Made by a program: the position numbers and the translations under genes. From sequence record MK327928.1: 64,000 nucleotides of DNA; one strand, given 5' to 3'. The notes below the pieces were generated by a model. It did no database searches and was not told the origin of the DNA. It was given only the letters and a program-made list of their open reading frames with translations. Positions 18,705 through 64,000 of the stretch are shown here, piece by piece. This stretch comes from Escherichia phage vB_EcoM_G2133. The number at the start of each line of letters is the position of its first letter. Within the stretch, counting starts at the first letter, position 1.

Positions 18705-18732
18705 TTTGTGTTCCTCCGTAGTTGATAGTTGT

Positions 18733-18762
18733 ATAGTACCACAGAGGAACAGTCTTGTAAAC
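18733..18762 (-). promoter_or_regulatory. T4-type early promoter
   Basis: GTTTAC, 18 nt, TACTAT on the minus strand, followed by the conserved CAACTATCAACTAC box. Confidence 0.55.
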
Positions 18763-20137: not shown

Positions 20138-20174
20138 TTTATTCTCCAAATCTGTATCAGTAGTTGATAGTTGT

Positions 20175-20204
20175 ATAGTACCATAAAGCTTTATGCTTGT
20201 AAAC
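20175..20204 (-). promoter_or_regulatory. T4-type early promoter
   Basis: GTTTAC, 18 nt, TACTAT; conserved CAACTATCAACTAC box downstream; A/T-rich upstream element. Confidence 0.55.
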
Positions 20205-24626: not shown

Positions 24627-24654
24627 GATGTTCTCCTCTTTATCCGATGGTTGT

Positions 24655-24684
24655 ATAGTACCACGGCTCAAACGAAAAGTAAAC
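24655..24684 (-). promoter_or_regulatory. T4-type early promoter
   Basis: TTTAC, 18 nt, TACTAT on the minus strand. Confidence 0.5.
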
Positions 24685-28842: not shown

Positions 28843-28869
28843 GTTATTCTCCTCTTAACTGATAGAAAA

Positions 28870-28899
28870 ATTATACCACAGTCAAGAGGAAAAGTAAAC
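28870..28899 (-). promoter_or_regulatory. T4-type early promoter upstream of regB
   Basis: GTTTAC, 18 nt, TATAAT on the minus strand. Confidence 0.5.
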
Positions 28900-31931: not shown

Positions 31932-31959
31932 GTGTTTCCTTGTTTGTTTTGATAGAGTA

Positions 31960-31989
31960 ATTATACCATATTAATACTTAAGCGTAAAC
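31960..31989 (-). promoter_or_regulatory. T4-type early promoter upstream of ipIII
   Basis: GTTTAC, 18 nt, TATAAT (preceded by TGG) on the minus strand. Confidence 0.6.
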
Positions 31990-32672: not shown

Positions 32673-32699
32673 AATTTCCTCCAAGTAGTTGATGAATGT

Positions 32700-32729
32700 A
32701 TAGTATCAAAACCCTTGGAGGAAGTAAAC
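32700..32729 (-). promoter_or_regulatory. T4-type early promoter upstream of denV
   Basis: GTTTAC, 18 nt, TACTAT on the minus strand. Confidence 0.55.
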
Positions 32730-33976: not shown

Positions 33977-34335
33977 TTTAATTTCCTGCAATCACTCACA
34001 AACTCTTTCATTGATTCATTTTCAATATAAGACATGTAGCTATTATATTCTTTTAATTGTATTTTGTAATCCTTTTTTCTTTGCCAATTTATTTTAAAAT
34101 TATCATAATGAAAATATAACATGGTACCAAAGAATGAAAATAATGAAATCGCTATAGTATAACGAAGTTCACTCCAAACCTCTGTTATAATTACTGTGCC
34201 GTCGATGTTTAAAATAAGATAGTCAATTAACAATCCAAAAAGACTACCTGCAAGAGCTGCAGCCAACGCCACAGCAAAAATTAAAAATGACTCAGGAAAC
34301 GAATATTTGACTTTATTTAGTTTTGGTTTTTGCAT
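33973..34335 (-). CDS. Membrane protein (e.2 position)
   Basis: 120 aa with two hydrophobic helices. Confidence 0.45.
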
Positions 34336-34709
34336 CGTGATTCCTTAACAAATTTCATAATTTCATCAAATTCATACATATCTAGCTTAAGCTGGTGTTC
34401 CTTTTTGATCTTTTTACACTGAGCTTTCCATTCACGTACACGTTTACGATAATGCCTTCCTTGATACCAATATCCTACCCAATTTACAGGTACTAATAAA
34501 AATGGAACTACTAATGGAAGAATTAATACTAACAGAAATATTACGTCAGATTCAATATCAGTCATAAAGTCTATAACCATTCCAACAATCAATAGAATTA
34601 CAAATGATATAAGTATAACAGGACCTATTAATACATCAGTAGAAATTATCTGGTGCTTTGGCTCATACTTCAAAGGTTTACTTGGAAGGTATAGTGATGG
34701 TTTTGACAT
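34317..34709 (-). CDS. Membrane protein (e.3 position)
   Basis: Start at the ATG at 34709; two hydrophobic helices. Confidence 0.45.
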   Translation of the reverse strand: MSKPSLYLPSKPLKYEPKHQIISTDVLIGPVILISFVILLIVGMVIDFMTDIESDVIFLLVLILPLVVPFLLVPVNWVGYWYQGRHYRKRVREWKAQCKKIKKEHQLKLDMYEFDEIMKFVKESRCKNQN

Positions 34710-35292
34710 ATTCTCTGCATTCCTTAACAAATTTTTCTAGTAATAAATCACTTTCAAAATTAGGATTTTCCACGAATTTATCAAAAAGATCATCAACAAT
34801 AGTCAAGATATTTCTTTTACTAAGAATACGTTTATTTTCATGTTTCGTTTCAGAATCAACTATAAGAGTAAAGAAATATTTCTTTCCCTGAAATTTTACT
34901 GTAGTATCAATATAAAATAAATTTGACTTTTGTAAATTACGTTTAAACCATGCGTCACTTAAACTATAAACACCGAGATAATCAAAATCGTCGTTTAAAT
35001 AACAAACTGTCCATTCAGGAGAAATGAAATCAGTAAATTCAACATCAAAATCACACGTCAATGAATGAATTGATTCAATACTGTTAATGAGTATTCCAGG
35101 ACGTATTAAAGACTTTTTACCTCTAGAAAATCTTCCGGAAAGGCTTTCATCAGTTTCATATGAAGACCCCCAATAGTAATTACGTCCTTCTGCCATGCGT
35201 TTAAGAGCATTTAGTAATTGGTCTGGAACATCAACCTGTCTTTGGAACTCTTCAAACATTGAATTGAAATCACTTTGCATTTTCATTTTCAT
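34678..35292 (-). CDS. Hypothetical protein
   Basis: 204-aa ORF with ATG start. Confidence 0.5.
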   Translation of the reverse strand: MKMKMQSDFNSMFEEFQRQVDVPDQLLNALKRMAEGRNYYWGSSYETDESLSGRFSRGKKSLIRPGILINSIESIHSLTCDFDVEFTDFISPEWTVCYLNDDFDYLGVYSLSDAWFKRNLQKSNLFYIDTTVKFQGKKYFFTLIVDSETKHENKRILSKRNILTIVDDLFDKFVENPNFESDLLLEKFVKECREYVKTITIPSK

Positions 35293-35311
35293 TCCTATTT
35301 ACTCCAAGTAA

Positions 35312-35329
35312 TAGGGGCCGAAGCCCCTT
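35312..35329 (-). other. Stem-loop (GGGGC-tetraloop-GCCCC) between genes
   Basis: Perfect inverted repeat with a 4-nt loop; no clear U-tract. Confidence 0.35.
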
Positions 35330-35333
35330 ATCA

Positions 35334-35927
35334 TTATTTCAGAGAATTAATGTATTCCTGAACATCGGCAGAGGTAGTTTCAACCCCAGAAATATTACCG
35401 TTAAAGGTTTCAACTCGAGCAAGGGTATCTTCAATATCAACCTTAGTCAGTGCTGCAATTTCAACTACATCATCGGCAGTACTAATTCCAAGGGCATTTG
35501 CTGCACGAGTTTCACGGATATATTCCAATTTAACCGCAAGTTCTTGACGAGCATCATCTAACTCAACTACTTTCTTGGCGATTTCAATTCGCATTTCAGC
35601 ATAACCGTCAGCCTTAGTAGTCAACTGCTCAGCTGTTCGACGATATAGTAAACCGAGTTTAGCATGCATTGTTACATCTTGACCTTCGGAAAGAAGTTTA
35701 CGAATTTCACGCTCTTTTGATTCGGCTTGTCGATTCTTTTCGACAATAAGTTCACGAATACGTTTTTCTTCATTAATAGATTTAACAGAAGCAGTTTTTA
35801 GATCTTTAATTTTATCAAGTAGTTTTGCTGCTGCAGCAGTATACTGTTCTTCGACAGATAGATTTTTAGCCATAGCAGAACCAAGTTTAGTGCGAATAAA
35901 CTCAACAATTTTCTTCAGTGTGTTCAT
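35334..35927 (-). CDS. Hypothetical coiled-coil protein
   Basis: 197-aa ORF rich in charged heptad-like segments. Confidence 0.5.
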
Positions 35928-35969
35928 AGTATTTCCTTAGGTTGATTAAGATTTAAAATCTGTGGAAGA

Positions 35970-35999
35970 ATTATATCATGCTATTTAAGAGGTGTAAAC
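35970..35999 (-). promoter_or_regulatory. T4-type early promoter
   Basis: GTTTAC, 18 nt, TATAAT on the minus strand. Confidence 0.55.
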
Positions 36000-36501
36000 T
36001 ATTTTTAATTTTACAAATTCGTTCAGCTTCTTCAACAGCGGCGGCGATAATGCTTTTAGCTATAGGAGTACTAATACTAGTAGCTTTTACACTTAACACG
36101 ATTTCTTTATCTTTACCAGGCCAACCCCACGTTTTTTCACCGTGAGTGCCTTTAATTACAGCAAACACCTCAAGTGAGCATCCATTATCACATGTTTTTA
36201 CATTAACAACCCAAGGGTCACTTTTCTCAACCGGTTTATCAATCGGTTTATCCCAGTAAATATTAAGAATACGTGGGACATCAAATTTAGCAGGGCAAAT
36301 CTTAACCGTAAGACCTTCGCTTTCTAGCCAATTAATAAGAGGGCGTTCATACATGCGACGATGTGGGCTTTGGACTCGACAAGCCTTGTGCCCATTGCTT
36401 GCGGCTTCACTAAGTTGTTCTAATACCTGCTTTTGCATTATTGATAAGATACCATCAAAAGATTTTTCGGAAGTTTCATTTAGTTCGGTATAAAGAGACA
36501 T
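35971..36501 (-). CDS. Hypothetical protein
   Basis: Start at the ATG at 36501. Confidence 0.5.
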   Translation of the reverse strand: MSLYTELNETSEKSFDGILSIMQKQVLEQLSEAASNGHKACRVQSPHRRMYERPLINWLESEGLTVKICPAKFDVPRILNIYWDKPIDKPVEKSDPWVVNVKTCDNGCSLEVFAVIKGTHGEKTWGWPGKDKEIVLSVKATSISTPIAKSIIAAAVEEAERICKIKNSLHLLNSMI

Positions 36502-36527
36502 AACAGTTTTCCTCAAGTTACAGGCTC

Positions 36528-36557
36528 ATAATATCTCAATCATGAGCCTGTGTAAAC
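36528..36557 (-). promoter_or_regulatory. T4-type early promoter
   Basis: GTTTAC, 18 nt, TATTAT on the minus strand. Confidence 0.5.
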
Positions 36558-36821
36558 TTATTTCATATTATTGAAATATTCTTCTGCGATTTCGTCGTTA
36601 TCATGGTAAACTTTAGAAGACAGTTTAACATAACCTTCAGCAGTGAACATATTAATCACAACCTTTACAGTATACCACTGACCATCTTCATTACCCATTA
36701 CTGCGTAAGTTTCAAACATCGGATGGTCAGGACCGATAACTTTAATATCATTCACTGTACGACCGAAATCTTCTGAAACGCATTTCATAAAGAAGTTGAA
36801 CAGTTCACCGTAATTATCCAT
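36558..36821 (-). CDS. Hypothetical small protein
   Basis: Start at the ATG at 36821 (GGAGAATGAA Shine-Dalgarno). Confidence 0.45.
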   Translation of the reverse strand: MDNYGELFNFFMKCVSEDFGRTVNDIKVIGPDHPMFETYAVMGNEDGQWYTVKVVINMFTAEGYVKLSSKVYHDNDEIAEEYFNNMK

Positions 36822-36864
36822 TTCATTCTCCAAGTTGTTTTCTGTATCAGTAGTTGATAGTTAT

Positions 36865-36894
36865 ATAGTACCATGGAAGAACAGGGATGTAAAC
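36865..36894 (-). promoter_or_regulatory. T4-type early promoter
   Basis: GTTTAC, 18 nt, TACTAT, followed by the CAACTATCAACTAC box. Confidence 0.55.
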
Positions 36895-37020
36895 CGTTTT
36901 GTGAAAAAATTTTTAAAAAGTTTTAGGGAATTCTAGGGTCAGGAGGGGCAATTAAAAGATAGGATAATATATTATAAAGGGTATAAACTAAATGATGCCT
37001 AGAGAGGCTCGGAAAGGCCT

Positions 37021-37054
37021 AGATACCAAAAAGCCCCAACCTTTCGGTCGGGGC
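37021..37054 (-). terminator. Intrinsic terminator closing the tRNA/stable-RNA transcription unit
   Basis: 9-bp stem (one mismatch) with a GAAA loop followed by U5 on the minus-strand RNA. Confidence 0.6.
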
Positions 37055-37059
37055 TAAGC

Positions 37060-37370
37060 CTTGCGGCAACCTTGTCGGGGTTCCACCTGCTAAGGCAAGT
37101 GTTTGTACGAAACGCCGGGATTCGAACCCGGTTATTAAGCAGTTGACGCTACTCAATATTTTAAAAGGCCATATCTCGACCATATCCGAACGTTCCGTCA
37201 AAAACGCTACTCGGCTTATGGCAAAGATATTTCCTCGAATCGATAATTCGGTGCGCCGTTTCTGCTGTGATATAAGGGGGGCATTAACAAAACATAAAGA
37301 TTTATTAATGCCAGTCCTTAAACAGGGAACATCAGTCCGACGACTTACCGGTAGCGACCCGGTTTCTTGT
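37060..37370 (-). ncRNA. Probable stable small RNA region (positional equivalent of the T4 species 1/2 stable RNAs), includes a tRNA-like T-arm
   Basis: No convincing ORF; GC-rich structured sequence with GGTTCGAATCC at about 37112-37132; lies between tRNA-Arg and the terminator. Confidence 0.3.
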
Positions 37371-37371
37371 C

Positions 37372-37447
37372 TGGTCGAGGCAGTAGGGATCGAACCTACG
37401 ACCCAGGACTTAGAAGGTCCTTGCTCTTCCTTCTGAGCTATGCCCCG
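37372..37447 (-). tRNA. tRNA-Arg (anticodon UCU), CCA encoded
   Basis: Manual fold: acceptor CGGGGCA/TGCCTCG, anticodon loop CTTCTAA, T-arm GGTTCGATCC, 3' ACCA. Confidence 0.85.
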
Positions 37448-37450
37448 TAA

Positions 37451-38116
37451 TTAAAATTTCATTTTTCGACCTTTAAACCATCCTTCTGGAATTGGGTCAG
37501 TTTTCTTAATACGTTTAGAAACTTTTTCATCTAATGAATGAATCCACATCATGCCAAATTGGGAATTCTTTTCACCTTGTTGGTGTTTATTTCTGGCGTG
37601 AGATTCTTTCATTTTATTAATAGTTTCAGGAGTATGGGTCTTACCCAAGAAAGATTTAGTATTTAAAAATTTCTCTCTATACTTAGGATTATCCCAAAGC
37701 TGTTTAAACCTTTCTGAACCCATTTTACGATATTTTTCTTTAAGGTCTGGGTCGTTCTCAAATCTGGTTTTAAAAGCGGCAGCTCCTTTTAAGGAAGCTT
37801 CTTTCTTTTTATCCAAATATTCTTTAGTGTTTAAATGGTCCCAACCACCTTCACCACCTAATTTCAAATTATAAACATCAGGGCGCTTTAAAAACTCTTC
37901 AGTCACAATATTCTTTTCTGACTCAAACATAGAGGTTTTATCGTCAAAGAACTCTAATATTTCTTTAGAAAAATTTTCTATACCATACTTATCTTGGGCT
38001 CTTTTTAATAATTTACCAGAACCCATATATCCATCATCTAAATTTTCGGTAGAATGAGCGCCTATATAGATTTTATTATTAATTTTATTTGTTATTTTAT
38101 AAATGTAATGGAACAT
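37451..38116 (-). CDS. segB: GIY-YIG homing endonuclease SegB
   Basis: 221 aa; N-terminal YIYKITNKINNKIYIGAHS GIY-YIG module; sits inside the tRNA cluster as in T4. Confidence 0.75.
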   Translation of the reverse strand: MFHYIYKITNKINNKIYIGAHSTENLDDGYMGSGKLLKRAQDKYGIENFSKEILEFFDDKTSMFESEKNIVTEEFLKRPDVYNLKLGGEGGWDHLNTKEYLDKKKEASLKGAAAFKTRFENDPDLKEKYRKMGSERFKQLWDNPKYREKFLNTKSFLGKTHTPETINKMKESHARNKHQQGEKNSQFGMMWIHSLDEKVSKRIKKTDPIPEGWFKGRKMKF

Positions 38117-38157
38117 AAATATCTCCTATTTCTAAGAGTATTTATGTTCTCAAAATA

Positions 38158-38229
38158 TGGCCCTGGGTGGAATTGAACCACCATCTGGCGATTATGAGTC
38201 GCTTGCTTGAACCTTCCAGCTACAGGGCC
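38158..38229 (-). tRNA. tRNA with anticodon CAU (Ile-type if modified, otherwise Met)
   Basis: Manual fold: acceptor GGCCCTG/CAGGGCC, anticodon loop CTCATAA, T-arm GGTTCAATTCC; CCA not encoded. Confidence 0.75.
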
Positions 38230-38235
38230 TTGATA

Positions 38236-38308
38236 TGCTGATTGACGGAATCGAACCGCCGACGTCCTCATTACAAGTGAGGTGCTCTACCTACTGAGCT
38301 AAATCAGC
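38236..38308 (-). tRNA. tRNA-Thr (UGU)
   Basis: Acceptor GCTGATT/AATCAGC, anticodon loop CTTGTAA, T-arm GGTTCGATTCC. Confidence 0.85.
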
Positions 38309-38315
38309 GAAATTA

Positions 38316-38402
38316 CGGAGGCGATAGGATTTGAACCTATGAGTCGCCGGAGCGACTGCCGGTTTTCAAGACCGGTGCATTAAACCACTCTGCCACGCCT
38401 CC
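38316..38402 (-). tRNA. tRNA-Ser (UGA), long variable arm
   Basis: Acceptor GGAGGCG/CGCCTCC, anticodon loop CTTGAAA, T-arm GGTTCAAATCC. Confidence 0.85.
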
Positions 38403-38404
38403 AG

Positions 38405-38478
38405 TCTCCATACAAGGATTTGAACCTTGGACCTCCTGATCCCAAATCAGGCGCTCTACCAAACTGAGCTACACGGAG
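38405..38478 (-). tRNA. tRNA-Pro (UGG)
   Basis: Anticodon loop TTTGGGA, T-arm GGTTCAAATCC; directly abuts tRNA-Ser as a dimeric precursor. Confidence 0.85.
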
Positions 38479-38490
38479 TAAATTAAATTT

Positions 38491-38562
<72 letters not shown>

Positions 38563-38568
38563 AAACTT

Positions 38569-38655
38569 TGGTACGAGAAGTGGGACTCGAACCCACAAGG
38601 AAATCATTCCGCAGCATTTTAAGTGCTGTGCCTTTACCAATTTGACTATTCTCGC
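38569..38655 (-). tRNA. tRNA-Leu (UAA), long variable arm, CCA encoded
   Basis: Acceptor GCGAGAA/TTCTCGT, anticodon loop CTTAAAA, T-arm GGTTCGAGTCC, 3' ACCA. Confidence 0.85.
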
Positions 38656-38661
38656 TCTATA

Positions 38662-39270
38662 TTATTTATTACGTGAAAAAGATTGTTCTATCAATTCTGG
38701 ACACTTTCGTTCTATCCATTTTCTAGCTTTTTGTGGGCTTATACCTATTATTTTAGCAGCTTTACTAACCCATCCAAATTTAGAATAATCGATTTTAACT
38801 AATTCTTCGTAAATTTCATCAGTTAAAATCTTTTCATTAATATTTACCAGTAAATGATATAATTTATTATCATTAGCAATTTTAATGAATCTTTTATAGT
38901 TTCCGCCTTTACTTAAACCTAATGAAGTAATTGCAGATGATATAGTAGCCGAATTTAATAATGCGTTTAAAATTTCTTCATCACTAACATTATAACGCTT
39001 TTTATTATTTTTAATATTTTTACCAGCAAAAGTATCAGTTTGCGAATGGCAATTTGGACATAATAATCTTAAATTTGATTTAAGATGATTTTTATTATTT
39101 CCATCAATATGGTCTAATTGCAGAACAATATGCTTATTTTGCCATTTTGAAATTTTACAAATTGCACACTCATATGGAAAAATATTTTCTTTTATTATTT
39201 TGTCTTTCAGCTTTCCTGTACTAAAATTTGGATGTTTTCCTTCAAAAATTTCAGCTAATTTAGTATCCAT
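38662..39270 (-). CDS. HNH endonuclease with C-terminal helix-turn-helix-like domain, adjacent to the tRNA array
   Basis: Start at the ATG at 39270; CAIC...LQLDHIDGNNKNHLKSNLRLLCPNCH HNH and zinc-finger motif. Confidence 0.65.
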   Translation of the reverse strand: MDTKLAEIFEGKHPNFSTGKLKDKIIKENIFPYECAICKISKWQNKHIVLQLDHIDGNNKNHLKSNLRLLCPNCHSQTDTFAGKNIKNNKKRYNVSDEEILNALLNSATISSAITSLGLSKGGNYKRFIKIANDNKLYHLLVNINEKILTDEIYEELVKIDYSKFGWVSKAAKIIGISPQKARKWIERKCPELIEQSFSRNK

Positions 39271-39380
39271 AATATAATTCCCAATTATTAACAAAGGCTC
39301 TCTAACAAGAACCCTTGATGATAGAGGGTATTAATCGGTGCGGTATGAGTTAATAATAACAAATAATTCTTAAAGCATAT

Positions 39381-39668
39381 TTACCATTTATGATGATACA
39401 TATTTACGATGCATTCAAGACCCAAAGGATTCTTGAAAATATCATATTCAAGAGGACCTTTTTCTGTTTCAATAAAGAAATCAAAGTTAACTGTGTTAAA
39501 TTTACGGTCTTCCTTTACTAATTTAACCTGAGAAGATGAACGGTCAATGTAAACCTTTTCGACTTCAAAACATGTTAAAATGCCATAATCATCAATCAAG
39601 GCTTTAGCTGCTTCTTGATCATATTTATATCCATTTTCAATGGACGATACTTTCGCATAAAGAATCAT
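39381..39668 (-). CDS. Hypothetical protein
   Basis: 95-aa ORF with ATG start. Confidence 0.45.
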   Translation of the reverse strand: MILYAKVSSIENGYKYDQEAAKALIDDYGILTCFEVEKVYIDRSSSQVKLVKEDRKFNTVNFDFFIETEKGPLEYDIFKNPLGLECIVNMYHHKW

Positions 39669-39670
39669 TA

Positions 39671-39853
39671 TTAACCTTTAGAAATTTTATCCATAGCAAT
39701 AGCGATTAAACCAATTAAAAATGCTACTACAAGTGAAAAAACATTTTCTGCCGTAGTCAATAATCCGCATATAAATCCAACAAACATTGAAAAACTGAAA
39801 GCAGAAGCAGAAATTGCAATAGCAACATTTCGAATTAATTCACAGCGTTTCAT
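39671..39853 (-). CDS. Small membrane protein
   Basis: 60 aa from the ATG at 39853 (GAGGAGAA Shine-Dalgarno); two hydrophobic segments. Confidence 0.4.
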   Translation of the reverse strand: MKRCELIRNVAIAISASAFSFSMFVGFICGLLTTAENVFSLVVAFLIGLIAIAMDKISKG

Positions 39854-39881
39854 TTTATTCTCCTCAGTAGTTGATAGGGTA

Positions 39882-39911
39882 ATAGTATCACTACCCCATC
39901 TAAAAGTAAAT
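39882..39911 (-). promoter_or_regulatory. Early promoter variant (ATTTAC -35)
   Basis: ATTTAC, 18 nt, TACTAT, followed by the CCCTATCAACTAC box. Confidence 0.45.
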
Positions 39912-40145
39912 TTATTTTTTACGAAAAATTGATTTATTTTCTGCTGCCCATTTTTCAATAACTGCAGCAGGACCAGTAACAACAATTTTATCACCGTAAT
40001 CTTCTGCGGCGAGTTGACCGAAATTATCTAATGCATCACGAAGAACTCCATGAGGCATTTCACCCATTTTATCTTTCTTGCCAGTGTAAATAAACTCAAC
40101 TTTTACATCAGCAGTTTCAGCAATAAATTCTTGGTAAGTTTTCAT
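39912..40145 (-). CDS. IP-like capsid-targeted small protein (ipI position)
   Basis: 77 aa from the ATG at 40145; N-terminal MKTYQEFIAE capsid-targeting sequence. Confidence 0.6.
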   Translation of the reverse strand: MKTYQEFIAETADVKVEFIYTGKKDKMGEMPHGVLRDALDNFGQLAAEDYGDKIVVTGPAAVIEKWAAENKSIFRKK

Positions 40146-40177
40146 TTTAGTTTCCATTCGATTGTTTTGATAGGGTA

Positions 40178-40207
40178 ATAGTATCACAACTAAAACCCTA
40201 TGTAAAC
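40178..40207 (-). promoter_or_regulatory. T4-type early promoter
   Basis: GTTTAC, 18 nt, TACTAT; upstream element aaaataatttcacaaagttGTTTAC. Confidence 0.55.
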
Positions 40208-40219
40208 AACTTTGTGAAA

Positions 40220-40477
40220 TTATTTTAAATCTTCTAATCGTTTTTTCATCTTAGAACCATTTTTAGCAATTTCTCCTGCATCGGAGCATAATGCTAAAAG
40301 TGCTTTAACTTTCGTTTGGTCTCCTTTAAAAGATGAAGGATCTACTGCAGCAGCAAGTTCTTTAATACGAGAGAAAAGACGCTCAGCTTCAGCTAAAGCC
40401 ATTCCAAGCTTTACTTCCATACCGTGGGAAGATTCAGTGATAGTAGTTTTTGTAGCAAACTCTTTGAAAGTTTTCAT
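40220..40477 (-). CDS. IP-like capsid-targeted protein, paralog of ORF 32732..33013
   Basis: 85 aa; N-terminal MKTFKEFATK; body AEAERLFSRIKELAAAVD...ALLALCSDAGEIAKNGSKMKKRLEDL aligns with 32732..33013. Confidence 0.6.
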   Translation of the reverse strand: MKTFKEFATKTTITESSHGMEVKLGMALAEAERLFSRIKELAAAVDPSSFKGDQTKVKALLALCSDAGEIAKNGSKMKKRLEDLK

Positions 40478-40507
40478 TTTATTTTCCTAATTAATTTTGA
40501 TGAGATA

Positions 40508-40537
40508 ATAGTATCACTACCTCATCAGCATGTAAAC
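40508..40537 (-). promoter_or_regulatory. T4-type early promoter
   Basis: GTTTAC, 18 nt, TACTAT; same upstream element as the promoter at 40178-40207. Confidence 0.55.
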
Positions 40538-40549
40538 AACTTTGTGAAA

Positions 40550-41246
<697 letters not shown>

Positions 41247-41247
<1 letters not shown>

Positions 41248-41972
41248 TATAGTACCTTTAGTGTATTTTTAATTTTAGAAAAAAGTTCTTCAAGAGAACC
41301 ATCGTTTGTAATTACTAAATCGCCATCACGAATTGGCAATCCAGCTTCTGTAATATGTGTATCATTGGATTTTTGACCAGGACGAACTACATGAATTACT
41401 GTAGCACCCATCGCCCTAGCCGCATCCATTTCATGATCTTGACGGGTATCAGGAACGATATAATAATCATAACCTGAGTTAAATTTATCAAGATAATCTA
41501 AAGCAAATAATTTTACCCAGTACATGCGGTCGAAGTTATTAACAATCAAATCCGTACCTAGGGCTTGCATCAGACGACGGACTGACCATTGATCTTCAAT
41601 ATTATTTATAACGTCAGTAATTTTGTTAAATGCTACGAAATTAACTGATTCTTTTCCTTCGTCGTCAAAAACAAACACGCCTTTAATCGGGCTTTTACTA
41701 TTAAGATAGCAAAATGCTTGTTCCATAATCATAATTACTTCTAATTTAGTCAAATTCAAATTAGTCTCACGATCATAGTCAATTCCTTCAAACTCTTTAC
41801 GAGTTAAGCAAGGATAATCATTGTTTGCAGCAAATACACCCCATGCATAAGCCAATGCATCCTTAATAGGACCAGCAAGTTGATATTTAACTGCAGAATA
41901 ATTATTCATGATAAAATCTGCAGTAGTATCTTTTCCACTACGCTTTACACCACTTAAAAAGATTAGTTTCAT
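41247..41972 (-). CDS. 1: dNMP kinase gp1
   Basis: 241 aa; P-loop GVKRSGKDT; matches T4 gp1. Confidence 0.9.
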
Positions 41973-42021
41973 GTGTTTCTCCTCAAATTTAGTTAAGATT
42001 ATAACACATGAAACTGAAGCA

Positions 42022-42552
42022 TTAAACTTCTGCTATAATTTTGCCATCTTTTTCTACTTGAAAATACGTATAAGGAATCGTTGCTGTGCATACTAAAGCC
42101 GGGTCTGAATCTTCCGTGTAGCTAAATTCTACTTCAGACAGGTCAGAAACCCAGGGCTTATAAAAATTTATTGACATCACGATTTCAGTTTTACTATTAT
42201 CTAAAATGTAAAGCGTAATGTATTCAGGACCTGTTTTTTGGGCAGTATTTTCGCCTGTAAGATAGTTACTAGTTCCTAACATCCATTCATACATTCCTAT
42301 CCACGACTTAAGTTCTTCATCAACTATAAATCTCACAATGAGTGGATCATACTCAAATGTAACACCTGGACGTTGTGCTCGACCCAGGCCAAATGGCCCA
42401 GTCACGGTATCAGTAACAGGTATCCTAATTCCTGGAATAGGAACTGACTGAGCATTTAAAGTAAAAGCAGATGTAGTATTACTATGCGGTATTGATACTA
42501 CAAAGTTAGTTGTATTTGCTTGGTTAAAAATTTGTTGCAGTGCTTGCGACAT
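42022..42552 (-). CDS. 3: Tail completion and sheath stabiliser gp3
   Basis: 176 aa from the ATG at 42552 (track ORF is N-terminally extended); size and position match T4 gp3. Confidence 0.8.
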   Translation of the reverse strand: MSQALQQIFNQANTTNFVVSIPHSNTTSAFTLNAQSVPIPGIRIPVTDTVTGPFGLGRAQRPGVTFEYDPLIVRFIVDEELKSWIGMYEWMLGTSNYLTGENTAQKTGPEYITLYILDNSKTEIVMSINFYKPWVSDLSEVEFSYTEDSDPALVCTATIPYTYFQVEKDGKIIAEV

Positions 42553-54779: not shown

Positions 54780-56584
54780 TGAAACAAAATATTAATATCG
54801 GTAATGTTGTAGATGATGGTACCGGTGACTACCTGCGTAAAGGTGGTATAAAAATAAATGAAAACTTTGATGAGCTTTATTATGAACTCGGTGATGGTAA
54901 TGTTCCATATTCAGCCGGTGCCTGGAAAACTTATAATGCTTCATCTGGGCAAACATTAAAAGCTGAATGGGGAAAATCATACGCTATTAATACTTCGTCT
55001 GGAAGAGTAACACTGCAACTTCCTAAAGGAACTGTTAATGATTATAATAAAGTAATTAGAGCTAGGGATGTATTTGCAACATGGAATGTTAATCCAGTTA
55101 CTTTAGTAGCCGCTTCTGGTGATACTATCAAAGGATCATCGTCATCGGTTGAAATTAACGTTCAATTTAGTGATTTAGAGCTAGTTTATTGCGCTCCGGG
55201 TCGTTGGGAATATGTCAAAAATAAACAAATTGACAAAATTATTAGTTCAGACATTAGCAATGTAGCTCGTAAAGAATTTTTAGTCGAAGTTCAAGGACAA
55301 ACAGACTTTTTAGATATTTTCCGTGGAACTAGTTATAATGTTAATAACATCAGAGTAAAACACCGCGGTAACGAATTGTATTACGGCGATGTTTTTAGCG
55401 AAAACAGTGACTTTGGCTCTCCAGGGGAAAATGAAGGAGAATTGGTTCCTCTTGATGGATTTAATATTAGATTAAGACAGCCTTGTAATATTGGTGACAC
55501 TGTTCAAATTGAAACATTTATGGATGGTGTATCGCAGTGGAGAAGTTCATACACAAGACGTCAAATAAAAGTATTAGATTCAAAATTAACATCAAAAACT
55601 TCTTTGGAAGGAAGTATTTACGTTACTGATTTATCGACAATGAAATCAATTCCATTCTCCGCATTTGGATTAATTCCAGGAGAACCTATTAATCCTAATT
55701 CTCTTGAAGTTCGTTTTAATGGAATTTTACAACAACAAGCTGGAACAGCCGGATATCCTCTGTTTTTATGTGAAGGCGCTAATTCAGATACACAAGAAGG
55801 ATGTATATCTCTTGGTGGTGAATGGAAAGAATCAAACACAGATTATTCTATAGAATATGAAGATGGAAAACCGATCAGTCTTTTATTTGATAGAAAATTT
55901 GAATCAGGTGATATAATCGTTATAACATGGTTCAATAATGATTTAGGAACTCTTTTGGAAAAAGATGACATCATTGAATTAACTGATGAACGCTATGTTA
56001 GCAAAGGATCATCTACTGAAGTTACTGGTGACGTAGCCTTAACTGATTTTGATAAAATCGGTTGGCCAAATGTTGAAAAAGTTGATTCTTATACTAGAAC
56101 ATATAATTCAATATCATCTATTTTCGATAGCATTTATCCCATTGGTTCAATTTATGAAAATGCTATAAACCCAAATAATCCGGTGACTTATATGGGATTT
56201 GGTTCATGGAAATTATTTGGTAAAGGACAAGTTTTAGTAGGATGGAATGATGATGTTACGGATCCAAACTTTGCATTAAATAACAATGATTTAGATTCTA
56301 GCGGAAATCCTTCGCATACTGCCGGTGGAACAGTTGGAACAACATCAGTGACACTTGAGAACGCAAATCTTCCTGCGACTAAAACTGATGAAAAAGTTTT
56401 AATTGAAGATGAAAACGGATCAGTTATTATTGGAGGTTGCCAATATGACCCAGATGAAACTGGTCCTATATATACAAAATATCGTGAAGACTACGCAACA
56501 ACAAACTCTTCACATACTCCTCCTGCTAATATTAGTAATATTCAACCGTCTATTACTGTATACCGTTGGATAAGGATTGCATAA
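54779..56584 (+). CDS. 10: Baseplate wedge and tail-pin protein gp10
   Basis: 601 aa; size and order match T4 gp10. Confidence 0.88.

Positions 56585-62031: not shown

Positions 62032-64000
<1,969 letters not shown>

Follow-up and report, generated by a model that had tools for sequence, protein, structure and literature searches.

Escherichia phage vB_EcoM_G2133 (record MK327928.1) carries, in the 64,000-nt stretch analysed here (the window), a series of early promoters on the minus strand in which similarity continues past the −10 element into a repeated box, CAACTATCAACTAC. The promoter with its −35 element at 36894 is one of them, and the question raised by this locus is what the box represents. 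We read it as the start-site segment (positions −5 to +9) of T4-type early promoters, in which an old core acting at the level of the polymerase would be joined to an extension belonging to the Tequatrovirus promoter cassette. Judging from sequence comparison, we give this reading a probability of about 0.55.

Comparison of positions 34000–42000 with phage records returned about 940 matches, the best with 96% identity over 100% of the query, and nearly all of them were T4-like coliphages, e.g. Escherichia phage Killian and RB33. The gene order of T4 is kept as well (about 32 to 96 kb). The phage is a T4-like coliphage (Tequatrovirus), and the box therefore concerns Tequatrovirus early promoters. 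The minus strand carries the early genes up to about 44 kb, where the sign of the GC skew also flips.

The box belongs to known biology, with the same sequences standing at known T4 early promoters and additional consensus mentioned in reviews. Literature searches aimed at the box sequence or at transcription start site sequencing (TSS-seq) data of T4 returned nothing relevant, with the primary T4 promoter compilations lying outside their scope. The core that recurs across genera at early promoters, together with a subclass linked to a TACTAT −10 element, is a small refinement and not a discovery.

A repeated box in fixed register with the promoter

The promoter at 36894 was located by pattern search and read from the sequence. 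Its −35 GTTTAC (36894–36889, minus strand) is followed by an 18-nt spacer (36888–36871), which ends in TGG and holds an extended −10 TG at 36873–36872, and then by the −10 TACTAT (36870–36865). A single base separates this hexamer from the box TAACTATCAACTAC (36863–36850), which has one mismatch to the repeated box and covers positions −5 to +9, with the predicted +1 at the A at 36858. Upstream lies an A/T-rich, UP-like region, aaaactttttaaaaattttttcacaaaacg (36895–36924), 23 of whose 30 positions match those of the promoter at 20204; the stretch aaaaattttttcacaaaacg upstream of the 36894 promoter is likewise A/T-rich and UP-like. In T4, 94% of the early promoters have A at −40, and their consensus is rich in A over −40 to −44 and −50 to −54. 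Downstream, a Shine-Dalgarno sequence GGAG (36831–36828) and an ATG (36821–36819) open an 87-aa gene (phrog_2678) after a leader of 37 nt. By position, the T4 counterpart of this gene is e.8, whose start codon at 70623 follows the T4 promoter start (70660) by 37 nt.

The classical start preference of sigma-70 promoters is a pyrimidine at −1 and a purine at +1, as in "CAT", with the start 7–8 nt after the −10. In the box, +1 is predicted to be the A of CT-A-TC, because several T4 starts share this register. The GenBank note "Pe133295", taken with the GTTTAC at 133331, gives a coordinate at the seventh base after the −10 hexamer; P1 at 75393 (Hinton's middle-promoter table) is the seventh base after its TATAAT; and TANNNT stands exactly at −12 to −7 for 48 of the 58 middle starts in that table. 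Apart from the one note, the T4 records NC_000866 and AF158101 hold no promoter features. Placed in this way, the box would span −5 to +9 and take in the last part of the discriminator together with the start site and the first nine bases of the transcript. Among the explanations that the initial annotation had offered for the conservation, an early transcribed sequence or start region fits best.

Counts over the whole window bear out the promoter pattern, with GTTTAC-N18-TACTAT (at most one mismatch) found 12 times against 0.58 expected, 11 of these on the minus strand. In the sigma-70 register, the −35 and spacing of this pattern read TTTACA-N17. The 14-nt box is exact at 18718–18731 and 20160–20173 and has one mismatch at 36850–36863. 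At 32685–32698 and 39867–39880, all three differences fall within the first four bases, and ATCAACTAC is identical across these five promoters. A loose search of the window for the 14-mer alone (at most three mismatches) gave 10 matches against 7.2 expected, which is not above chance; the signal comes from the exact core at its fixed register. All four copies of CTATCAACTAC in the window are linked to promoters and share one offset from the −10/−35 pair, where about 0.04 would be expected by a base-composition estimate. In T4, six of the seven copies of CTATCAACTAC stand at that same offset. The promoter pattern counts and the fixed offset of the CTATCAACTAC copies reject a chance origin of the box. 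Mean pairwise identity among the five promoters reaches 80% in the box (−6 to +9) against 38% in the spacer, 41% upstream and 41% from +10 to +24, so the box forms a discrete conserved island.

The repeated box just after the −10, first pointed out in the initial annotation, is real, and so is conservation past the −10 in these early promoters (80% in the box against 41% at +10 to +24). Five promoters had been listed as GTTTAC, 18 nt, TACTAT. In this list, the promoter at 39911 is the exception, with ATTTAC in place of GTTTAC. Variant boxes had also been assigned to the promoters at 40207 and 40537; what these have in common with the box is only the core (C/T)ATCAAAA. Their first bases differ because TACCCT and TATCTC, respectively, are complementary to the promoters' own spacers.

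Early-class restriction and recurrence across T4-like phages

Early promoters were collected with a rule blind to the box. It disregards −6 to +9 and accepts a site only if GTTTAC is exact, 18 nt of spacer lead to TANNNT, and a Shine-Dalgarno sequence, a start codon and an open frame come within the next 60 nt. T4 contributed 35 such promoters and the window 17. Among these, ATC at +1 to +3 was present in 13/35 and 9/17, ATCAA at +1 in 9/35 and 7/17, and the full ATCAACTAC at +1 in only 6/35 and 4/17, respectively. The box had been proposed as a feature of early promoters in general, a proposal to be dropped if most of them lacked it. Most do lack the 14-mer, and the general claim holds only for the shorter core. 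ATC is strongly associated with a −10 element that reads TACTAT: in T4, it occurs in 11 of 13 promoters with TACTAT versus 2 of 22 with other −10 variants (p = 1e-5), and in the window in 7/7 versus 2/10. The full box marks a TACTAT-linked subclass, not the whole early class. Per-position information in the T4 early set amounts to 0.3–0.6 bit and is continuous from −3 to +7.

The middle promoters of T4 use the same host core polymerase and the same −10 register as the early ones. Among the 58 that are mapped, ATC is found at +1 in 3, compared with 13/35 early promoters (p = 1e-4), and ATCAA in none, compared with 9/35. The 21 late TATAAATA promoters in front of genes show no comparable start-site signal. 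G makes up 11% of positions +1 to +9 in early promoters versus 20% in middle ones. A general need of polymerase start sites on T4 DNA is ruled out, given 58 middle and 21 late promoters without the motif. In the promoters with ATC, the start codon follows +1 at anything between 20 and 54 nt, and the distance to the −10 is constant; the motif therefore belongs to the promoter or the 5' end, and these distances reject an element linked to the ribosome-binding site.

The orthologous promoters of T4 (+1 at 70660, 55348, 53907 and 73536) also have this box, and T4 has further copies with +1 at 167050, 163637 and 27044. The promoters of the window are followed by the Shine-Dalgarno sequence and ATG of e.8, nrdC.8, nrdC.10, trna.4 and internal-protein genes, and their T4 counterparts start at 70660, 53907, 55348, 73536 and 73903. 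More distant relatives were represented by 37 IMG/VR loci encoding an nrdC.10-like protein (61–100% identity), among them loci representative of Acinetobacter phage Acj61, a ZZ1-like Acinetobacter phage and Citrobacter phage Merlin. The promoters upstream of these genes vary in spacer, −10 variant and leader, and most of them have (C/T)ATC(A/G)AA directly 6 nt after the −10, as in TATTAT agacct ATCGAAAC, TATAAT agtctt ATCAAATC and TACTAT agctcc ATCAAAAC. In RB49, where the early promoters read TTGACA-N17, 5 of 12 start with C ATCAAA, ATCTAA or ATTTAA. In Aeromonas phage 44RR, "C ATCAAAT" is present in 7 of 12 promoters.

A pooled set that includes T4, filtered to less than 75% identity over −45 to +20, left 96 promoters. 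In this set, C occupies −3 in 51%, a pyrimidine −1 in 93%, A +1 in 71%, T +2 in 62% (G in 8%) and C +3 in 48%, while A is found at +4 to +6 in about 55%. The share of G is 0–10% from −4 to +8, except at +1 (15%) and +8 (11%), and the information summed over −6 to +8 is about 4.4 bits. Positions −6 to −4 contribute only 0.16–0.25 bits each, with G at −5 in 40%. Published logos of T4-like early promoters end at position 0, and the paper that presents them notes that RB69, RB49 and 44RR favour C from −3 to −1 (Nolan et al. 2006).

Bases after +6 are specific to phage groups, with CTAC in Tequatrovirus and TCAAA or ACAAA elsewhere, so the box is composed of an old core and a lineage-specific extension. 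The old core consists of C(−3), Y(−1) and A(+1)TC(A/G)AA, is poor in G and lies 6 nt after the −10; the extension is ACAACT...CTAC, often followed by TGATACRGA. At the nrdC.10 promoter, T4 has ATCAACTGATACGG, without the "TAC" of the box, where the window has ATCAACTACTGATACAG; positions +6 to +9 are therefore dispensable.

In 44RR, the promoters with +1 at locus positions 42266, 24334, 16504 and 14576 are near-identical copies over at least 60 nt, reading TTTACAa(t/c)gatgggactatgg(t/a)tTA(C/T)TAT(g/a)gtcccATCAAATC... They carry a GGGACT/AGTCCC repeat around the −10, an instance of cassette multiplication in a distant genus.

Several known elements were compared with the box. The optimum of the discriminator contacted by sigma region 1.2 is GGGA at −6 to −3, with G at −5; the box has ACAA/TAAC there and −6 to −4 are weakly conserved. 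The discriminator reading proposed initially therefore fails, as conservation across genera is lowest at −6 to −4 (ACA/TAC). The core recognition element, a contact of the polymerase beta subunit, calls for G at non-template +2, a position where the 96 promoters have T in 62% and G in 8%. A T4 middle (MotA) promoter would carry (a/t)(a/t)TGCTT(t/c)A, centred at −30 and replacing the −35, and the box promoters have GTTTAC and no TGCTT.

An RNase site had also been suggested. In T4 early mRNAs, the RegB/S1 cleavage motif is given as GG*AGRAYARAA (Durand et al. 2006, as related in Uzan & Miller 2010). The box TAACTATCAACTAC contains no G, and the RegB consensus falls in the Shine-Dalgarno region 1–30 nt downstream, which rules out a RegB site in the box and removes the RNase reading. 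The motif is rather a second conserved element of the same leaders, with GGAGAATAAAA following the box at 20168 and 39875. Shine-Dalgarno regions of the form GGAGAATAAAA(TG), at 20145–20135, 39850–39840, 36831–36821 and other early gene starts, fit the RegB consensus, and the early mRNAs that carry them are likely RegB targets.

Possible function, cassette history and rival explanations

In the proposed mechanism, the early promoters would be read by unmodified host sigma-70 RNA polymerase right after infection, starting at the A of CT-A-TC. The core may act on the polymerase itself, fixing the start point through pyrimidine (−1), A (+1) and T (+2), and a G-free, A/C-rich initial transcript would favour quick initiation and escape. 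Promoters that bind polymerase very tightly are expected to be escape-limited, and such an aid would serve promoters on which contacts with UP, −35, TGn and −10 together keep an unusually tight hold of polymerase. As a by-product, early mRNAs would all begin with an unstructured 5' end of the same kind. The extension ACAACT/CTAC (with TGATACRGA) would be alike mainly because its carriers are copies of one recombining promoter-early stem-loop (PeSL) cassette. The most likely function of the box would thus be to tune the choice of start site as well as initiation and escape on very strong sigma-70 promoters. The sequences themselves show the anatomy of the box, its fixed register, its confinement to the early class and its recurrence in several genera; what it does during initiation and escape, and how the cassettes spread, we infer. 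Conservation begins upstream of +1 (C at −3, pyrimidine at −1), so a part of the signal, at least, must be read in DNA. T4 early promoters have been described as "uber" promoters combining UP, −35, TGn and −10 contacts (Hinton's review), and their alignments show further consensus regions thought to optimise the interaction with polymerase (Hinton 2010).

The cassette in question is described as a conserved unit of ~100 bp composed of an A/T-rich region, −35, −10, stem-loop, Shine-Dalgarno sequence and ATG, and for the T4/PST pair its consensus is given as TTTACW-N17-TAYWAT (Arbiol et al. 2010; Comeau et al. 2014). There, the stem-loops lie between or overlap the −35 and −10 boxes, and the unit serves as a recombination substrate that shuffles small genes. 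Besides the box, several T4 and window promoters share an upstream AAAATTTTTTCACAAAAC(G/T) and a downstream TGATAC(A/G)GA...TTGGAGAAT(A/G)AAATG. The extended identity around the box may best be read as shared cassette ancestry with homogenisation by recombination.

Such a history raises the alternative that the box has no function of its own and is alike only because its carriers are recent PeSL copies. The tie of the full box to the TACTAT subclass is consistent with this hitch-hiking, as are the continuation of identity into TGATACRGA and the UP region in one family, the documentation of PeSL cassettes as recombination substrates and the extra promoter and internal-protein gene cassette (40171) that the window has relative to T4. 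However, the identity is not contiguous: between the promoters at 36894 and 20204, only 8 of 18 spacer positions agree, and these lie between 14 of 15 in the box and 23 of 30 upstream. The core also recurs in Acinetobacter, Aeromonas and Citrobacter phages and in RB49 with unrelated spacers, −10 elements and leaders, and it is scarce at the middle promoters of T4 (ATC 3/58, ATCAA 0/58), with no signal at the late ones. Patchy identity and recurrence across genera argue that the core is kept by selection, and we regard pure hitch-hiking as unlikely. A different proposal places the function in the 5' end of the early mRNA, where the conserved bases would serve ribosome/S1 loading or 5'-end-dependent decay. 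Positions +1 to +9 are indeed poor in G and rich in A and C, and in many promoters the box makes up the whole leader up to the Shine-Dalgarno sequence (leaders of 21–22 nt). Predicted leaders are nearly unstructured, with a mean minimum free energy of −2.0 versus −2.9 kcal/mol for shuffled sequences and about 77% of the first nine bases unpaired, but the predicted difference in 5' accessibility is small (0.77 for ATC versus 0.68 for non-ATC leaders), so that predicted folding of the early leaders gives only a weak, non-discriminating signal. C at −3 and the pyrimidine at −1 (93%), which are among the strongest positions, lie outside the RNA; the distance to the −10 is fixed where that to the Shine-Dalgarno sequence and ATG varies from 20 to 54 nt; and the known nuclease target in early mRNAs, GG*AGRAYARAA of RegB, is located elsewhere. 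On this balance, a role confined to the RNA appears quite unlikely.

The motif could also be the binding site of a phage or host protein that recognises early starts, for early shut-off or the response to Alt. It is class-specific and overlaps the start site, the typical position of an operator; according to reviews, the shut-off of early promoters is "not completely understood", and promoters with identical −35, TGn and −10 elements differ in their Alt response. Yet the core is short, with about 7 informative bases and about 4.4 bits over −6 to +8, is present in only a third to half of the early promoters and is common to phages of very different hosts. The same start occurs at T7 A1 and lambda PL (see below), which favours an optimum at the level of the polymerase. 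No candidate binding protein was identified, and the regulator reading raised in the initial annotation gained no positive evidence. A factor-binding site appears highly improbable. It is very doubtful, too, that the start motif singles out early promoters or their transcripts for class-specific control, be it early shut-off or the differential stimulation by Alt (which ADP-ribosylates polymerase) of promoters alike in −35, TGn and −10, with the full box marking a separately regulated immediate-early subclass.

Several points weigh against the start-site reading that we prefer. The ATC core is present in only about a third to half of the early promoters and is therefore dispensable for early promoter activity, and the middle promoters of T4, which share the core polymerase, do without it. 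Through the TACTAT link, part of the Tequatrovirus signal is shared ancestry and not independent evidence. The promoter sets come from a pattern rule, not from experiments. In the reviewed T4 promoter literature, no role is assigned to the start region, and mutations in T4 P8.1 and Ptac pointed to no single position as responsible for Alt stimulation (Hinton's review). Lastly, roles at the RNA and the DNA level are both anchored at +1 and are not separable by sequence analysis.

Other features of the window and comparison with known systems

The other early promoters described here lie on the minus strand of the window. The box is exact in the promoter at 18718–18762 (−35 18762–18757, −10 18738–18733, +1 18726, box 18731–18718), upstream of the nrdC.8 homologue, where +11 to +18, in the Shine-Dalgarno region, pair with an arm in the spacer, TGTTCCTC. 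It is also exact in that at 20160–20204 (box 20160–20173, +1 20168), upstream of the nrdC.10 homologue. The spacer of the latter (20198–20181) contains a perfect 14-bp palindrome, CATAAAGCTTTATG, which is identical in two T4 early promoters with their −35 at 55384 and 146875. The promoter at 32685–32729 (+1 32693) carries the box variant CATTCATCAACTAC, with three mismatches at 32685–32698, and a 10-bp spacer arm, TTCCTCCAAG, that pairs with +9 to +18, the Shine-Dalgarno sequence included. The promoter with the ATTTAC −35 (39867–39911, +1 39875) has the variant ACCCTATCAACTAC, with three mismatches at 39867–39880, and is followed by phrog_1692, the counterpart of T4 trna.4.

Two promoters hold only the core. 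That at 40163–40207 (+1 40171; TACCCT ATCAAAAC) drives an internal virion protein gene (phrog_8111), and its spacer ATAGGGT is complementary to ACCCTAT at −5 to +2; that at 40493–40537 (+1 40501; TATCTC ATCAAAAT) drives an internal head protein gene (phrog_3499), and its TGATGAG arm pairs with −3 to +4. Pattern search located two more, one at 31945–31989 (+1 31953) with a TATAAT −10 and the core TACTCT ATCAAAAC, and one at 24640–24684 (+1 24648) with TACTAT and the partial box ACAACC ATCGGATAA. A TATAAT promoter with the minimal core TTTTCT ATCAGTT (28855–28899, +1 28863) is the counterpart of the T4 regB promoter region, and an identical T4 promoter has its +1 at 62761, just upstream of regB.

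Inverted repeats accompany a part of these promoters. Perfect spacer arms of at least 7 bp that pair with −6 to +30 were found in 6 of 17 window promoters (null 0.5) and 10 of 35 T4 promoters (null 0.93); the promoters with +1 at 36858 and 20168 have no such pair (4 bp only). The repeats straddle the −10: their 5' arm belongs to the spacer, and their 3' arm falls at −6 to +4 or covers the Shine-Dalgarno sequence. They are the published PeSL stem-loops. On the minus strand of the window, they are present at 40537–40493, 40207–40163, 36557–36515, 32729–32676, 28899–28850 and 18762–18709, and in T4 at promoters with +1 at 65763, 57954, 73903, 20576 and 130274. RNA made from the local promoter lacks the 5' arm, and read-through RNA from upstream has both arms. 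An arm over the Shine-Dalgarno sequence (32693, 18726 and 28863) would mask the ribosome site only in read-through transcripts. A compensatory change is seen between 36557–36515 of the window and 70359–70317 of T4, with ATAGGCT(N)/GAGCCTAT in T4 and ACAGGCTC/GAGCCTGT in the window. For the N in this spacer of the T4 reference, both the window orthologue and the complementary arm point to C.

The segment 39671–40537 comprises three tandem early promoters (+1 40501, 40171 and 39875), two internal-protein genes (phrog_3499 and phrog_8111) and the trna.4 homologue. T4 has two promoters, ipI and trna.4 at the same locus, the one difference of this kind noted between the two phages. An upstream region of 24 nt is identical between the promoters with +1 at 40501 and 40171, and the locus looks like cassette shuffling.

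About 140 nt upstream of the 36894 promoter, a strong GC-rich hairpin on the minus strand (37055–37032; 10 pairs, 7 of them G-C) with a T-run appears terminator-like and may end the upstream transcription unit. GC hairpins with a TTCG loop and a T-run also lie directly before the UP region of further early promoters, such as at ~24715–24690 of the window and at a further locus upstream of nrdC.10. Between 37105 and 38655, ARAGORN called eight tRNA genes: Lys(ttt), Arg, Met(cat), Thr, Ser, Pro, Gly and Leu. Those in the T4 record are Arg, Ile, Thr, Ser, Pro, Gly, Leu and Gln. What was called as Met(cat) may be an Ile tRNA with a modified CAU anticodon, and the 94-nt Lys call, at the position of T4 rnaC/rnaD, is doubtful. 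No convincing early promoter directly before a tRNA gene was found in 44RR or the window.

T4 early promoters are a textbook case of a virus out-competing host promoters, and they are used as very strong promoters in engineering. The comparison adds a short start-site core, which T4-like phages infecting four host genera retain amid unrelated flanks and which is missing from middle and late promoters, and a long box that marks the TACTAT subclass. Positions −5 to +9 thereby give a handle on two open questions of T4 biology, the selective Alt response and early shut-off, and a better promoter model is suggested for the annotation of T4-like genomes.

Among known systems, the T4 early promoters are the direct orthologues: they have the same GTTTAC, 18-nt spacing, TGn, TAnnnT, A-rich upstream region, downstream genes and box, with no structural difference. 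The composite unit of A/T-rich region, −35, −10, stem-loop, Shine-Dalgarno sequence and ATG that defines PeSL is also seen in the window promoters. The accessible parts of the PeSL papers emphasise recombination and termination and single out no start-site motif, and the promoters with the full box and TGATACRGA are those without a straddling inverted repeat. With sigma-70 promoters of the "CAT" type, the early promoters share the pyrimidine at −1 (93%), A at +1 (71%), T at +2 (62%) and the start 7 nt after the −10. The T4-type core differs in being longer, with C at −3, C at +3, the A-run at +4 to +6 and the exclusion of G up to +8, and in being found in one promoter class only. T7 A1 reads CC|ATCGAG at its annotated start (498), and the lambda PL sequence contains CAC|ATCAGC, within which its start presumably lies as marked. 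For the T5 early promoter N25, the first ~20 transcribed bases reportedly affect the late steps of initiation and escape. N25 has a sequence unlike the box (ATAAATTTGAG...), and, as a very strong phage early promoter that is said to work on unmodified host polymerase, it provides the mechanistic analogy proposed here.

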